NCBI GenBank assembly: GCA_963819715.1
Contig: CAWFXE010000001.1
Span: 196,332-260,331, forward strand
Reading direction: 5' to 3'
DNA from: an uncultured Solirubrobacterales bacterium
GTDB taxonomy: Bacteria > Actinomycetota > Thermoleophilia > Solirubrobacterales > 70-9
Length of the DNA stretch: 64,000 nt
Shown here: positions 1 through 4,960 of the stretch, piece by piece
How positions within the stretch are numbered: the first letter of the stretch is position 1
How the letters are laid out: each line of letters starts with the position of its first letter
The notes under the pieces: model-generated
What the model was told of the DNA's origin: nothing
What the model saw: only the letters and a program-made list of their open reading frames with translations
The model's database searches: none
Translations under genes and position numbers: made by a program

Positions 1-207
1 GTGTGAGTAGACGTAGTCCCGGCTGACCCCAAACCGCCGAGCGACCTCGGCGGCGTGGACCAGGTACGGCTCGGGTCCACCCTTGGCGGCCAGGCGATCA
101 GCGACACGCTCGGCCAGCTCGTCAACAATGCCGGCGAGCTGGCGCCCCAGAGTGTCGGCGACCGCATCCTCGATCGTGGCCAGGAGCTGCTCGCGCGCGT
201 CGCTCAC
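1..207 (-). CDS. excisionase/MerR-like HTH DNA-binding protein, partial (C-terminus left of window)
   Basis: Manual minus-strand translation from GTG at 207 gives VSDAREQLL...PEPYLVHAAEVARRFGVSRDYVYSH, which ends in an HTH typical of the excisionase family. Its start overlaps the upstream ORF stop as GTGA. It is absent from the ORF track because it runs off the window. Confidence 0.5.
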   Translation of the reverse strand, partial: MSDAREQLLATIEDAVADTLGRQLAGIVDELAERVADRLAAKGGPEPYLVHAAEVARRFGVSRDYVYSH

Positions 208-725
208 GTCGCAGCCTCGCCTAGGAGCGCGCTCCTCGCGTGGTCCTCCCAGCGACGGATGGCGGCCAATGCGCGATCGCGATCATCAGCTGCGGACGCA
301 GCGTCGATCTCCTGTTCAAGCTGCTCCCAGGCGTCGCCGTCCACGTCGGGCCAAGCCGATTCGGGAATGTGGCCGTAGATCGCGTTCACCTTCCGCACCG
401 CTGCTGCAAGCTCGGCCCTGATCCCGGGGGTAGCTGGCTTGCGCGCCTCGCGGTTGATGCGGTGTTCGCGTAGCCATTCGACACCGCGCTCGGCACCAGC
501 CTTCCGGATCTGCTCAGCGAGCCTCTCCAGCGGCTCGTATCGCTCGCGGTCCTCGTAGCCCAGCGCCTCCTGGTAGAGGGCCTCAGCGCAGGCACCCACG
601 ACGGCGTTAACGAGCGCGGCGGGGGAGTCTGGACCTGACTCGGCCAGGACTGCCGAGGCCGGGGTGACCGTGAGCGTTTTTCTGGGCGCCACGAGGTCGC
701 CCCGTCTGCCCGAGGATTCAGGCAT
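204..725 (-). CDS. hypothetical protein of integrated element
   Basis: ORF 204..755. The likely start is the ATG at 725, which overlaps the stop of the upstream gene. Its C-terminus DRDRALAAIRRWEDHARSAL resembles DADRALAAIAEWEDHWLAAI in ORF 39756..40187. Confidence 0.5.
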   Translation of the reverse strand: MPESSGRRGDLVAPRKTLTVTPASAVLAESGPDSPAALVNAVVGACAEALYQEALGYEDRERYEPLERLAEQIRKAGAERGVEWLREHRINREARKPATPGIRAELAAAVRKVNAIYGHIPESAWPDVDGDAWEQLEQEIDAASAADDRDRALAAIRRWEDHARSALLGEAAT

Positions 726-2255
726 CTTGCCCCGCCTCAGGTGTCGGGGTGACACCCTCCGAATCGGGGGTGTCGGGTGTCATTTCCCCTAGGGCGCTGA
801 CACCGTGACACCCCTCCAAGGTGTCGGGTGTCGCCAAAGGTGTCACCCCCGACACCCTTCGATAGCGGCCGTCATCGAGCCGCTCAAGCTCCCCGCCGTC
901 CACCAGATCCGCGCAGAGTCGGCGCACCGTCCGGTTCTTCGGGTCACGGTCGATCGCTCTCGCCAGATCCGCCAACGTGGCCGGCTCGGCCGCTGCGTCC
1001 AGCAGCGCCGGCGCCAACGCGATGCGAGGGGCGGCCGGTTGTTCCTGCTCGTCCCGCTCGAAGGGCTCGGCGGCGTCGATGAACACCTGGCCGCGTTCCA
1101 GGTGGAGGCGTAGCCAGCGGTCGGGCGGCTCCGGGGCCGGCCGACACTTGAAGCAGCGAAGGCGGCGCCGGTCCCGGGCTTCGGGATCGTCCGGCAACCG
1201 CGAGAGTCGGAAGCCGAGCTCGATCGCCGCTCCGATCGCCGAGGTTCCCCGGTAGTCGTTGCCGGCGCGAGAGACGTGGTGGAGCAGGAGGCCGGCGACC
1301 TTTCGTCGGCGCAACATGTTGCGCAGGGGGTCGAGCACGGCCGAGACGGCAGCCGCTGTCGTTCTCTTCGCCCGAGGGCCAGAGAGACCGGAAGCTGTCG
1401 AGGATCACGAGGCCGGGATCCACCTTGTCGATCAGGTCCTCGAGCGCGGCGAGATCGTGGCCCAAGTTGTAGCCGTCGGCTTCGACCACGGTCACACCTT
1501 CAGCCGGGAGCCCCAACGTGTGGACTCGGCGGTGAATCTCGTACTGGCCATTCTCAGCGTCGACGATCAGGACCTCGGTTCGCTTGCAGGGCACTCCCGC
1601 CACGTCCTCGCCAAGGGCGACGCCGGCGGCGAGGCTCATCGCCAACAGGCTCTTGCCCTCGCCCTCCTTGCCCGAGATCAAGGTGAGGGAACCTTCTACA
1701 GCGAGCCCCTCGACGACCCACGGAACCGGCGGTGGGGAGGATCCGACCATCGCCTCGACGTCGAGGACTCGCAGCTGCGCACGTGCCTTCAGCCCGTCGC
1801 CGAGCAGCCCCTCGATCTTTCGGACGATCGCATTGGCTTCGCCGTTCGTGTAGGAGAGCTCGCGGAGTTCAGCGGCGTACTCGTGCAGCTTTCGCAGGCG
1901 GGCGTCCCGCTTCACGATGGCCGCGTAGTGGACCGCGCTGCCCGGAGCCGGCACCTTGGCGGCGAGGCTCGCCACCTTGTCCTTGCCGCCGACGCGCTCT
2001 AGCTCGCCCTCCTGGTTGAGCTGATCGATGACGGTCAGCACGTGGACGACGCCGTCGGCGGCGCGCAGGTGATGGATCGCGCTGAAGATCGCCGATGGCG
2101 GTCGCTGTAGAAGTCGGCGGCCTCAAGCTGGACCTCGTGACGACGGGCTTAATCGTCGACTCGGAGACCAACATCGCCCCGAGCACGGACTCCTCTGCCT
2201 CCGGGTTCTGGGGCGGGCCGATCGTCACGGCCGCTCCGATCAGCGAGGAGAACAC
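718..2255 (-). pseudogene. DnaB-N-terminal-domain + RecA-like AAA ATPase (RepA/AAA_25-type helicase-like), at least 3 frameshifts
   Basis: PPQNPEAEESVLGAML (DnaB N-terminal motif) lies in frame A. DFYSDRHR is in a second frame and AIFSAIHHLRAADGVVHVLTVIDQ in a third (shifts near 2135 and 2095). A Walker A-like GKEGEGKS and DAENG follow. A further shift near 1340-1380 joins ORF 944..2041 to ORF 718..1338. Confidence 0.6.
740..856. repeat. iteron-like cluster of hexamer GGTGTC/GACACC (10 copies in 117 bp)
   Basis: GGTGTC counted at 740, 769, 776, 820, 827 and 839. GACACC counted at 751, 799, 807 and 851. The cluster lies in the 3' end of the helicase-like gene and gives the repetitive peptide GVTP/DTP. 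Confidence 0.6.
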
Positions 2256-2299
2256 GCAGCAGGTTTGGAGAGCAGCTACCCCAGCGGGGATGGGGATGA

Positions 2300-3163
2300 G
2301 AAAAGCTTAACGGCGGATGGCTTCTTCGCGCAGGATCATGACGATGAGCTCGCGATAGAGCTGCGGGTGCTTTTGGCTGCACGGGGCGCGTGTTACATGC
2401 GCTGTGGTCTGCGTACGGCGAGCTCTCGATGCTGTGAATCCAAGCGGCTGCGGCGCGACGTGATCGCTAGTTGTGCAACGTTGGATCGCGCGGCGGCGCG
2501 GGACCTAGACTAGCGACTCTCTCGGGATTCTTAGCTATGTGGCGCGCAGCTTCTTTAGGGTGGGTGCACGCGTTGCGCAATTTCGCGTTGCGGTTCGACA
2601 GCGCTGGATTGGGGGTGGCTAGCAGCTTCACTTGCTTCTCGGTGCATAGCTAGGCGCGCGGTTCTTGGGCTGCGGGGTAGTTAGAGCAAAGTGGGTAGCG
2701 AGCTAAGGTTGGCTCTTTCTCTCGGGCTGGTAGAGCGCTTCGGGACGGATGACGCTATAAGTCGATGCTTTGCTGGTTAGATTTGCGTATGTGGGATAGT
2801 GCTCTGGTGCTTTCGCAAGGGTGTGCGGGGGTCTTGCTGGTTTAGGTGCTGGGCTCGACGTAGAGCGCTATCGCGAGTATGAGGCGGGTTGCTGCTGCTT
2901 AGGTCGACGCTCTCGCGCTCGAGTGTGGAGATAGCGCACGGTGATTGTAGCAGGGAGGCGAGCTGCTTCTGGGTGAGGTGCGGTAGAGTCGAAGCTCTCG
3001 GATCGCTATCGAACAGTAGTAGAGAATGGATGTAGAACGGGTTTAGGGGTGAAGGGGAGCGCTGGGAATTTAATAGGTAGAATGAGATTTCTGTTAGAAT
3101 AAGGTGGATGTGGGTGGTTGGAAATAGAGGGGAAAGTGGGAAAGAGTGGTGGAAAAGTGGTTT
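2300..3163. other. ORF-free, strand-asymmetric (G>>C) tract of falling GC content with degenerate internal repeats
   Basis: The six-frame track shows no ORF of 60 aa or more between 2654 and 3163. My counts of C per 60 nt fall from 17 (2401-2460) to 6 (3001-3060). Positions 3061-3165 contain 2 C against 41 G. The motifs GCTGGT(T)AGAG and TAGAGCGCT recur at irregular spacing. Confidence 0.5.
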
Positions 3164-3202
3164 TTATGAGTCCGCTGCTCTGACCAGCTGAGCTACCGGC
3201 CC
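3164..3202 (-). pseudogene. 5' half of tRNA-Met/Ile2 (anticodon CAT), truncated right after the anticodon loop
   Basis: The reverse complement reads GGGCCGG-TA-GCTC-AGCTGGTCA-GAGC-A-GCGGA-CTCATAA: acceptor strand, D arm, 5' anticodon stem and a loop with CAT. The expected TCCGC is replaced by AAACC, and no T arm or 3' acceptor strand follows. Confidence 0.7.
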
Positions 3203-3241
3203 TGTCGGGGCCGAGCGTACCGTCCGGGGTAGATTCGACGG

Positions 3242-3589
3242 ATGGCTCGGGAGCAGGAGGAGCTCCAGGAGACGACCTTCACCTGGCCGCTGCTCGGCGC
3301 GCTCTATGGGTCGGTGGTGATCGTCGTCATCGTGGCCCTGCTCAATGCCCATGTGGGACGGAGCCTCGACGACAGGATCGACGCGCCGGCGCGGACTCTG
3401 ATCGCGGTGCCGGTGATCGCAAGCGCGGCAATCGTGTTCGCGGCCAGCATGGTGGCGCTGTTGCTGCCCTCCTACCGGCGGGTGGCGATGCGGGTGGCGG
3501 AGATCGCCAGTTGGCTGATTCCGGCATGGCTGGTGATGAGCGCCATGGTGTTGGGGGCGATCTCGTTCGCCATCGACCACGCCGGCTGA
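3242..3589 (+). CDS. small integral membrane protein (hypothetical)
   Basis: ORF of 115 aa with about four hydrophobic segments. Confidence 0.5.
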   Translation: MAREQEELQETTFTWPLLGALYGSVVIVVIVALLNAHVGRSLDDRIDAPARTLIAVPVIASAAIVFAASMVALLLPSYRRVAMRVAEIASWLIPAWLVMSAMVLGAISFAIDHAG

Positions 3590-3591
3590 CG

Positions 3592-3960
3592 TCAGTCGGC
3601 CAGGGCCGCCAGGGAGTCTCCGACTGACGAGGGCTCGGCAACGCCCTCCGCAGCCGCCTGGGCGCCCTCATTGAAGGCGCTCGCGCCCGCGACCAGCGCC
3701 GCGGCGGCACCGGGCTGGATCCGTCCGACGTCGACGCAGCCGGCCAGGAACAGCTCGATCTCCCTGGCCAGGTCGGCGAGCCGATTCTGGCCCACGACCA
3801 GGGCCGCGCCCTTCAGGCCGTGCGCCTCGACGCGCAGCTCCTCGATGCGTTCCGAGTTCTTCTCGTCCGAGCCGGCGATCTCCTCGAGCCCGTCGATGAT
3901 CGTCGGCGTCCGCCGCCCGGCCTCGGCCGCCAGCATGCTGAGGAGCTCGTCATCCCCCAT
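3592..3960 (-). CDS. Hpt (histidine phosphotransfer) domain protein
   Basis: ORF of 122 aa. It carries the EAHGLKGAALVVG motif (HxLKG) typical of Hpt domains. Confidence 0.6.
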   Translation of the reverse strand: MGDDELLSMLAAEAGRRTPTIIDGLEEIAGSDEKNSERIEELRVEAHGLKGAALVVGQNRLADLAREIELFLAGCVDVGRIQPGAAAALVAGASAFNEGAQAAAEGVAEPSSVGDSLAALAD

Positions 3961-3970
3961 CGAGGGAGTT

Positions 3971-4960
3971 CTACCCGTTCGCGACCTTCTGCACCGCGGA
4001 CTCGAGCTCCTGAACGCTGTAGGGACCCTGCAGGACGGTGCTGACTTTCCCGCTGCGGTCGATCACGTATGCCCAGGGCTCCGTCTGCAGGTGGAAGGCC
4101 TGCATCTGCGGGCGGGGGCCGTCGTTGATGTTGTTGTTGTTGTAGATCTCCTGGTGGATGAAGGCGACCCTGTCGCCGAACTCCTGCTTCACCTGTTCTG
4201 CGATGTCGGTGACAGGCCCGCAGACTCGTGACTGGCAGAGAGCCGGGGTCGCGAAGAGCAGGACCATCGGCTTCTTGCCGACGACGTCCGCGAAGTCGTC
4301 CGAGTGCATGTCGTCGGGCGGGACGCGCGTGTCGATCTGGGAGATGTTCGAGACCTGGCCCGGGGTCAGGGTGTGGATCGCGGGGACGCTCTGGCCGACC
4401 TGGGGCATCGGGTAGTCGCCGACCGGGTTCGGCGTCGGCATCAGGCTGTACTGGTAGGCACCGCCGTTCTTGATGAGAGCCGCGAAGGCCCAGGGGCCGG
4501 GCTTGTTCAGCGGGATGTCGGCGACGTAGGCGACCTGCGCCGCGCTTGGGTCGTCGGCGGTCGTCTTGGCGCGGAAGGCGGGCTTCGTGGTGAGATCCTC
4601 GATCCGCGCCGGGAAGGGACCGATCGCCTTGCCTTCGACGCCGCGGCCCGGGGCGGCGTAGACGGCGACCTCCGCGTCGGTGATGGGGTCATGGCCGGTG
4701 GTGAAGACGCCGAAGGGGAAGCGGTTGGTGCCGAGGTGGAAGTTGGCGGCCGCCGGGGACGCGACGGGGCCCTGGGCGGCCTGCGAGGAGACGATCAGCT
4801 GGCGGAGCGTCTGGCCGTTCGCCGGGGGGAACGCGGACGCGGCGGGCGCGGGGCGGCTGCGGCTGCCGCTGCCGTTGTCCGAGCCGCCGCAGCCTGCGAC
4901 GAGCGCGAGAGCGAGCACGGCGGCGGCTGCTGCGAGGGGCTTGCGGGTCACGGGCGGCAT
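3971..4960 (-). CDS. thioredoxin-fold (redoxin/TlpA-like) lipoprotein
   Basis: Within ORF 3971..5113, the likely start is MPPVTRKPLAAAAAVLALALVAGCGGS, which includes a lipobox. The C-terminus KKPMVLLFATPALCQSRVCGPV suggests a thioredoxin-like fold. Confidence 0.6.
   Translation of the reverse strand: MPPVTRKPLAAAAAVLALALVAGCGGSDNGSGSRSRPAPAASAFPPANGQTLRQLIVSSQAAQGPVASPAAANFHLGTNRFPFGVFTTGHDPITDAEVAVYAAPGRGVEGKAIGPFPARIEDLTTKPAFRAKTTADDPSAAQVAYVADIPLNKPGPWAFAALIKNGGAYQYSLMPTPNPVGDYPMPQVGQSVPAIHTLTPGQVSNISQIDTRVPPDDMHSDDFADVVGKKPMVLLFATPALCQSRVCGPVTDIAEQVKQEFGDRVAFIHQEIYNNNNINDGPRPQMQAFHLQTEPWAYVIDRSGKVSTVLQGPYSVQELESAVQKVANG

Follow-up and report, generated by a model that had tools for sequence, protein, structure and literature searches.

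A stranded tRNA 5′ half as the attR of a tyrosine-integrase element, and an adjoining C-poor tract that is probably a long-read consensus artefact

The integrative elements of actinomycetes, of which pSAM2 is an example, and the tRNA-targeting integrases, among which K. P. Williams' 2002 survey reportedly distinguishes an anticodon-loop class, provide the closest described counterparts of the locus studied here. The present element shares with tRNA-targeting tyrosine-integrase elements an integrase gene beside the att site, a tRNA identity that ends at the anticodon loop, tRNA-derived direct repeats, a tRNA gene that is rebuilt on integration, and empty sites in relatives. It differs from them insofar as it duplicates the 5′ half of the tRNA and not the usual 3′ part, lies upstream of the tRNA and must supply its promoter, and has the stop codon of its integrase inside the anticodon loop. 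The window, a stretch of 64,000 nt from an uncultured Solirubrobacterales bacterium, contains the right part of this element, with the following features (positions are those of the window unless a contig is named):

1 to 3163, no strand: in-window part of the ~10.0-kb element (C1:189478-199494), whose integrase, HNH gene and intact tRNA lie left of the window
718 to 2255, minus strand: replicative helicase gene (DnaB-N/AAA_25) of the element, distributed over three frames (Pfam and PHROG matches)
2282 to 3041, plus strand: non-coding, T-enriched CC-free zone (2 CC), from dinucleotide counts
3042 to 3163, plus strand: nearly C-free block (3 C), 72% purine, abutting the att core, from counts per 110 nt
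3164 to 3202, minus strand: orphan 5′ half of tRNA-Met(CAT), the attR core, in direct repeat (39 bp) with the 5′ half of the intact tRNA at C1:189403-189477
3203 to 3245, minus strand: native upstream region of the tRNA, promoter-like (its promoter function is inferred), before the orphan half

The half tRNA is the attR of the ~10.0-kb element, whose integration site is the 5′ half of the tRNA. An earlier note, made from the letters of the window alone, had read 3202-3164 on the minus strand as a tRNA 5′ half through the CTCATAA anticodon loop, and this reading holds: the 39 nt are GGGCCGGTAGCTCAGCTGGTCAGAGCAGCGGACTCATAA and end with that loop. The note had suggested looking for an intact tRNA with the same 5′ half elsewhere in the genome and for an intact tRNA at this locus in relatives, and both exist. 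A second copy of the 39-mer, identical at 39/39 positions (100%), lies 10 kb away at C1:189439-189477, within an intact tRNA-Met(CAT) called by ARAGORN, and in 8 genomes of the genus an intact tRNA is joined straight to the same flank, as expected of an empty site. Abutting the intact tRNA-Met is a tyrosine integrase, a 438-aa ORF with PF00589, PF14659 and PF22022, whose C-terminal end lies inside the tRNA 5′ half and whose TAA stop codon is formed by the last three bases of the anticodon loop. It is the copy of the 39-mer in the intact tRNA-Met, together with the adjacent integrase and the empty sites in relatives, that identifies the stub as attR. At the stub itself the tRNA and covariance-model scans that the note had also proposed (ARAGORN, and Rfam over 1500-4000 with E up to 10) gave no tRNA and no relevant RNA family.

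In 4 other genomes different elements occupy exactly the same crossover point, and the tRNA-Met site is an integration hotspot. The elements at this point in sister genomes range from ~2 kb to ~53 kb (G006:C7:473734-494425, G017:C1:134302-187600, G002:C136:103-2258 and G012:C132).

The tyrosine-integrase element has recombined within the 39 bp common to attP and the 5′ half of the single-copy tRNA-Met(CAT), and the shared att stretch stops at the anticodon loop. The working tRNA now receives its 5′ half and a -10-like box from the element, and the original 5′ half has been stranded, with its native upstream region, 10 kb off as attR. The genome has three CAT tRNAs, each in single copy, and the rebuilt tRNA must therefore work. 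A block ACGAATCTACCCCGG..GTACGCTC, situated 11-18 nt before the tRNA start, is kept in all empty-site relatives and is present here as well, before the orphan half. Three different elements at the tRNA-Met site (L005:3479-3520, L018 and L020) have in common ..GAAA(A)CCGC..AAGC[CG]ATAATCGA.. about 15 nt before the rebuilt tRNA. The box AAGC[CG]ATAATCGA looks like an element-borne -10 box that would replace the native promoter.

Between the two 39-bp repeats the element encodes an HNH gene, unassigned ORFs and the DnaB-N/AAA_25 helicase, and its cargo proteins gave no matches in NCBIfam or PADLOC. Intact helicase homologues of 486-535 aa align to the present gene in frames 3, 2, 1 and 2, and the two frameshifts nearest the C-poor tract are 1-nt deletions relative to the host dnaB. 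The first ~54 nt of the element helicase (window 2168-2226) are 93% identical at the DNA level to the start of the host dnaB (C2:1103245-1103298), and its N-terminal domain has ~50% protein identity to that of the host; this suggests recombination with, or recent capture of, the 5′ end of the host dnaB.

Between attR and the helicase gene lies a tract of 882 nt (2282-3163) whose strand asymmetry is more extreme than anywhere else in the genome. The plus strand of 2282-3171 has only two CC (at 2440 and 2504), and 102 GG were counted on the same strand over 2330-3163. The CC-free run of 668 nt is the longest run free of CC or of GG in the 3.02-Mb genome, the next longest being 181 nt, and elsewhere in the genome every 400-nt window holds at least 14 of CC and of GG. 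The extreme excess of G over C to which the earlier note had drawn attention is borne out, with a GC skew of 0.58-0.72 in the tract, against ~0 over the rest of the element; the value at C1:199301-199500 (0.72) is the maximum of ~30,000 genome windows of 200 nt. The steady decay of C toward the stub that the note had described resolves instead into two regimes. In the first (2282-3041), counted per 110 nt, the C that follows G, A or T keeps close to the density of the flank, CC is lost, T increases by 8-10 and A is unchanged. The second (3042-3163) is nearly devoid of C altogether, has 3-4 tandem GGAAAG(A)GTGG-like repeats, a motif confined to this local cluster, and resembles the C-free end blocks of tracts in sister genomes (G048:C11, G049:C18 and G056:C5). 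Both edges of the tract are sharp.

The composition of the tract can be reproduced by a simple rule without parameters, namely that a C preceded by C becomes T, when this is applied to random segments of the genome:

TG: observed 68, rule 67, unmodified 36
CG: observed 77, rule 75, unmodified 106
TT: observed 44, rule 48, unmodified 16
GCT: observed 41, rule 45.5, unmodified 16.7
CTAG: observed 5, rule 4.2, unmodified 0.4

For the base composition the rule predicts A.157, C.245, G.344 and T.254, and A.162, C.211, G.379 and T.249 were observed. Models were compared by the sum of z-squared over 15 dinucleotides, which was ~32-33 for CC>CT, 65 for random replacement of that C, 112 for collapse of C runs, 127 for no change and 152 for editing of the 5′ C. 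Deletion models and the spectrum obtained from the sister tract of G048 gave a poorer fit to the tract (49-112) than pure CC>CT, and deletion-only models were set aside for this reason. The recurring motifs listed in the earlier note (GCT..., TAG...) are present, as by-products of CC>CT and CA>TA and not as iterons or tandem repeats. The suggestion in the same note of a hypermutated relic of the integrase/att end is correct insofar that the tract stands at an att end of the element and has a one-strand signature of C>T type. The part that concerned an integrase relic was rejected, as was any other hypermutated ORF, since an intact integrase stands at the other end of the element and a period-3 signal is missing from the tract, whether in S/W, in S+T or in G alone, the last being undisturbed by C>T. 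When T runs after C were reverted to C, 67% GC was regained, without periodicity and with only low-complexity open frames. The structured non-coding RNA considered in the note found no support in the Rfam scan or in folding, in which stability relative to shuffled sequence was ordinary (z-scores of -1.7, +0.6 and +0.1). Scans of the tract for iterons, tandem repeats, sigma-70-like promoters and intrinsic terminators returned nothing above chance.

Searches for a source of the tract were equally negative. When the same genome and related loci were searched for a parent copy, blastn in plain, C>T-collapsed and G>A-collapsed form gave chance matches only. The att-proximal 300 nt, compared with the equivalent arms of related elements both with G>A allowed and without, reached a z of at most 3.1. 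Homologues were not found in 40 relatives plus ~300 genomes of the order, nor in ~820 kb of related-integrase and related-helicase loci (80 integrase loci included). Phages, plasmids and IMG/VR, the last scanned with a T-to-Y-degenerate pattern, likewise revealed no homologue, nor any donor for the foreign DNA considered in the earlier note, and a search for an independent assembly carrying the locus found none.

Look-alike tracts do occur in sister assemblies. A scan for C-free 74-mers in 53 genomes of the genus found them in 13, the present one and 12 others; all 13 are assemblies of ~40 contigs or fewer, and none has ~100 contigs or more. The C-free 74-mers are confined to the forward strand of the contig in 10 genomes and to the reverse strand in 0, and in G055 the "reverse" matches stem from the same poly-A run, read as its complement. 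These are poly-A, (TG)n, A-rich or purine-only tracts of 0.1-1.3 kb, found at:

G055:C13:32338-32509 (L128): 172 A with a 19-bp duplication on its flanks
G021:C2:152-450 (L127): (TG)n run at the start of the contig
G024:C1 (L130): tract of the same class
G049:C18 (L126) and G059:C8 (L131): tracts whose flanks are adjacent in no relative searched
G056:C5 (L129): tract with a good copy in its own assembly
G048:C11 and G048:C6 (L151 and L125): tracts of the same class, the first with a good copy in its own assembly
G060, G009, G065, G066 and G067: further tracts of the same class

The build of the sister tracts in G056:C5, G059:C8, G049:C18 and G048:C11 is the same throughout: normal sequence passes into 300-900 nt that are CC-free or C-poor, then into C-free low-complexity sequence (purine-only, AT-only or poly-A), and then abruptly becomes normal again. 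G048:C11 is the closest twin of the present tract; it has no CC over ~900 nt, contains 30-45% T, and is located between the end of a tRNA-linked element and a serine-recombinase gene. The good copies available for two sister tracts show base by base what has happened there:

G056:C5 against G056:C8:886-1414: A kept 117/120, T 80/85, G 154/180; C unchanged 65/165, C>T 2, C>A 12, C deleted 86
G048:C11 against G048:C5: A kept 53/55, T 84/87, G 121/130; C unchanged 42/93, C>T 25, C>A 1, C deleted 23

In G048:C11, 65% of C in CC context became T, and deletions account for 25-52% of C in the G048 and G056 tracts. The tract class is therefore a C-specific failure on one written strand, which worsens along the contig and is only partly a matter of clean substitution. 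The poly-A, (TG)n, A-rich and purine-only tracts of the sister genomes look like quality defects of public assemblies.

We infer that the present tract belongs to this class, and consider that 2282-3163 probably misreports the true att-proximal spacer of the element, as an artefact of long-read consensus and not of biology. The assembly artefact, which the earlier note had named as an outcome that would overturn its interpretation, is now the best-supported reading, on the evidence of a class that is tied to the contig strand and shows both C>T and C deletions against good copies; the excess of G over C that the note had seen stands. Long-read consensus sequences of low-coverage MAGs contain systematic indels and strand-specific miscalls. 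The likeness to such errors extends to the confinement to low-contig, presumably long-read assemblies, to the deletions, to the frameshifted neighbouring genes, and to the setting at repeats and strain-variable junctions. Confinement to low-contig assemblies and a tie to contig orientation, as an artefact of this kind should show, were both found in the tract class, and base-specific miscalls or skips against a good copy were seen in the sister tracts of G056:C5 and G048:C11, the present tract being one that lacks a good copy. The argument rests above all on the strand bias, since a biological process cannot know in which orientation a contig is written, and further on the C deletions and the joins of regions that are adjacent in no relative searched. 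Along the forward strand of the contig, the consensus would have called T for C, in CC to begin with, or omitted the C, to a growing extent until the loss culminated in an almost C-free block; at the att core it would have recovered abruptly, possibly because the sequence from the core onward is shared with element-free cells and read support rises there. The fault would arise in basecalling or in polishing, and we assume that read support over the tract is thin. To our knowledge no publication describes a C-specific dropout that progresses to a low-complexity end, and our literature search for an artefact of this kind found none. Several observations count against the artefact and call for some caution. 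The pure CC>CT rule fits the present tract better than deletion models or the G048 spectrum do, the contiguity of the assembly (7 contigs) speaks against a coverage that is low globally, and the step that would link the fault to contig orientation cannot be named. Moreover, the tract stops exactly at the att core, a biologically meaningful point, and its twin G048:C11 also lies between the end of a mobile element and a recombinase gene, which a real process at recombination sites would predict likewise.

Such a process could be single-strand deamination, a reading that we regard as unlikely for this tract. The plus strand of the att-proximal spacer would once have been single-stranded, for example as the 3′ tail of a resected break at the recombination core, and a cytosine deaminase preferring 5′-CC would have edited it, with uracil or abasic sites copied as T or skipped, to leave a kataegis-like cluster ending at the core. 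In its favor are the fit of the CC>CT rule to composition and dinucleotides, ahead of 5′-C editing, random C replacement and C-run collapse, the two sharp edges, an edited strand whose 3′ end points at the att core with C loss greatest beside it, and the same pattern next to a serine-recombinase gene in G048:C11. Bypass of abasic sites can leave 1-nt deletions and could explain those observed. The resemblance to APOBEC3G hypermutation of retroviral DNA, or to kataegis on resected single-stranded DNA, lies in clustered C>T on one strand with C before the target, in sharp edges and in a length of ~1 kb. The differences are that the present tract has no available ancestor sequence, that its look-alikes show many C deletions, poly-A ends and a contig-strand bias, and that a search of the genome, 85% complete, for three deaminase families (DddA-like, YwqJ and APOBEC_N) found none. 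Deaminase toxins are known from bacteria and vary in what they prefer before the target C (10.1101/2023.06.29.547047; PMC7901873), and de Moraes et al. proposed that genomes be mined for natural footprints of DNA deamination (PMC7901873). A literature search for natural bacterial kataegis found no report. The C>T signature in itself fits deamination, and an ancestor or parent copy was not found even with C/T- or G/A-collapsed searches. Against this reading, tracts confined to the forward strand occur in at least ten genomes and tracts confined to the reverse strand in none; of the C in the sister tracts, between roughly a quarter and a half has been deleted and not substituted; these tracts pass into poly-A or purine-only stretches and connect regions that no relative searched has side by side; neither the att core nor the integrase side is affected; and C>T cannot account for the excess of purine in 3042-3163. 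When the tract class, as distinct from the present tract, was tested for a substitution-only and orientation-independent pattern, it did not show one. For the class as a whole, the idea that the tracts are real, and mark ~1-kb single-stranded 3′ tails at mobile-element recombination sites on which a CC-preferring deaminase left C>T and 1-nt deletions, seems to us rather improbable. Further proposals were dismissed: deamination associated with transcription from the tRNA promoter, because it would be the template strand that is affected; strand-specific editing of the element over its whole length as a chronic process, as the skew is ~0 elsewhere; and avoidance of a CRISPR PAM or restriction site, by the reasoning that the other strand is full of CC.

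A selected function would make the composition of the tract itself the trait, and we hold this to be highly doubtful. Transcribed from the stranded tRNA promoter, the tract would yield a C-rich, GG-free RNA that could act as a rut region shielding the replication module (or, in the excised circle, be the stretch downstream of int); alternatively, the tract would be a replication origin. Of the first 100 nt in tRNA orientation, 40 are C and 1 is G; the predicted minimum-free-energy fold leaves these 100 nt unpaired, and they hence agree, as far as the prediction goes, with the C>G, unstructured RNA of ~80 nt or more that defines a rut region. The native upstream region is kept before the orphan half, Rho is encoded in the genome, and for an origin it could be said that the tract is directly upstream of the replicative helicase gene. 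With rut regions such as lambda tR1 the tract would share a C-rich, G-poor, unstructured RNA right downstream of a promoter, but it differs in its 882 nt, in a loss specific to GG and in being conserved in no related element. It is absent from 9/9 complete related elements, 80/80 related-integrase loci and 3/3 related-helicase loci; there are no iterons; the fold z-scores (-1.7 to +0.6) are ordinary; and selection on G content predicts neither a loss of GG only nor replacement by A only. Strand bias and sister tracts are also left unexplained by either function. It is barely credible that the tRNA is instead split by a large intron, or by a tRNA-primed retroelement or other foreign insert, with its 3′ half further off. 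Bacterial tRNA group I introns sit near the end of the anticodon loop, and the tRNA similarity does stop there, just past the anticodon. However, Rfam, group I and II introns included, gave no match, the element contains no 3′ half, and the att structure, with its identical 39-mer, intact tRNA, integrase and empty sites, refutes an intron, a split tRNA or an insert.

If the tracts are artefacts, as we favor, the result is a warning: species-representative long-read MAGs, 13/53 of this genus, contain stretches of 0.1-1.3 kb of corrupted consensus that can be mistaken for hypermutation, purine-rich non-coding RNAs or poly-A tails; these occur at mobile-element junctions and in some cases join regions that are adjacent in no relative searched. 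Scanning forward strands for long C-free or CC-free runs is a cheap means of detection. Should they prove real, the tracts would amount to the first natural record in bacteria of clustered deamination on single-stranded DNA.

Whatever the origin of the tract, the locus is a record of integrases that target a tRNA gene in its 5′ half and carry with them a promoter for it. When 80 metagenome loci encoding related integrases were compared, a co-oriented tRNA (Arg-CCT, Met, Val or Ala) was seen after the integrase in the closer relatives; this clade comprises L005:3404-4756 (C1:189403-190755), L043, L050, L051, L053, L058-L060, L063, L065, L067, L068, L070, L073, L074 and L085. Orphan 5′ halves were found in 9 of these loci, 3.4-10 kb upstream and in some cases as tandem arrays. 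The integrase frame runs into the tRNA 5′ half in several members of the clade, and more distant relatives have the usual arrangement at the tRNA 3′ end. In the tRNA-Arg(CCT) elements, the att-proximal arm contains a conserved hairpin TTTGGGCAGCGAGAAC..CGCTGCCCAAA and a CGATTACGCACGATT block, located ~135 nt after each orphan tRNA-Arg half (L050, L058, L059, L060, L065, L068 and L074).
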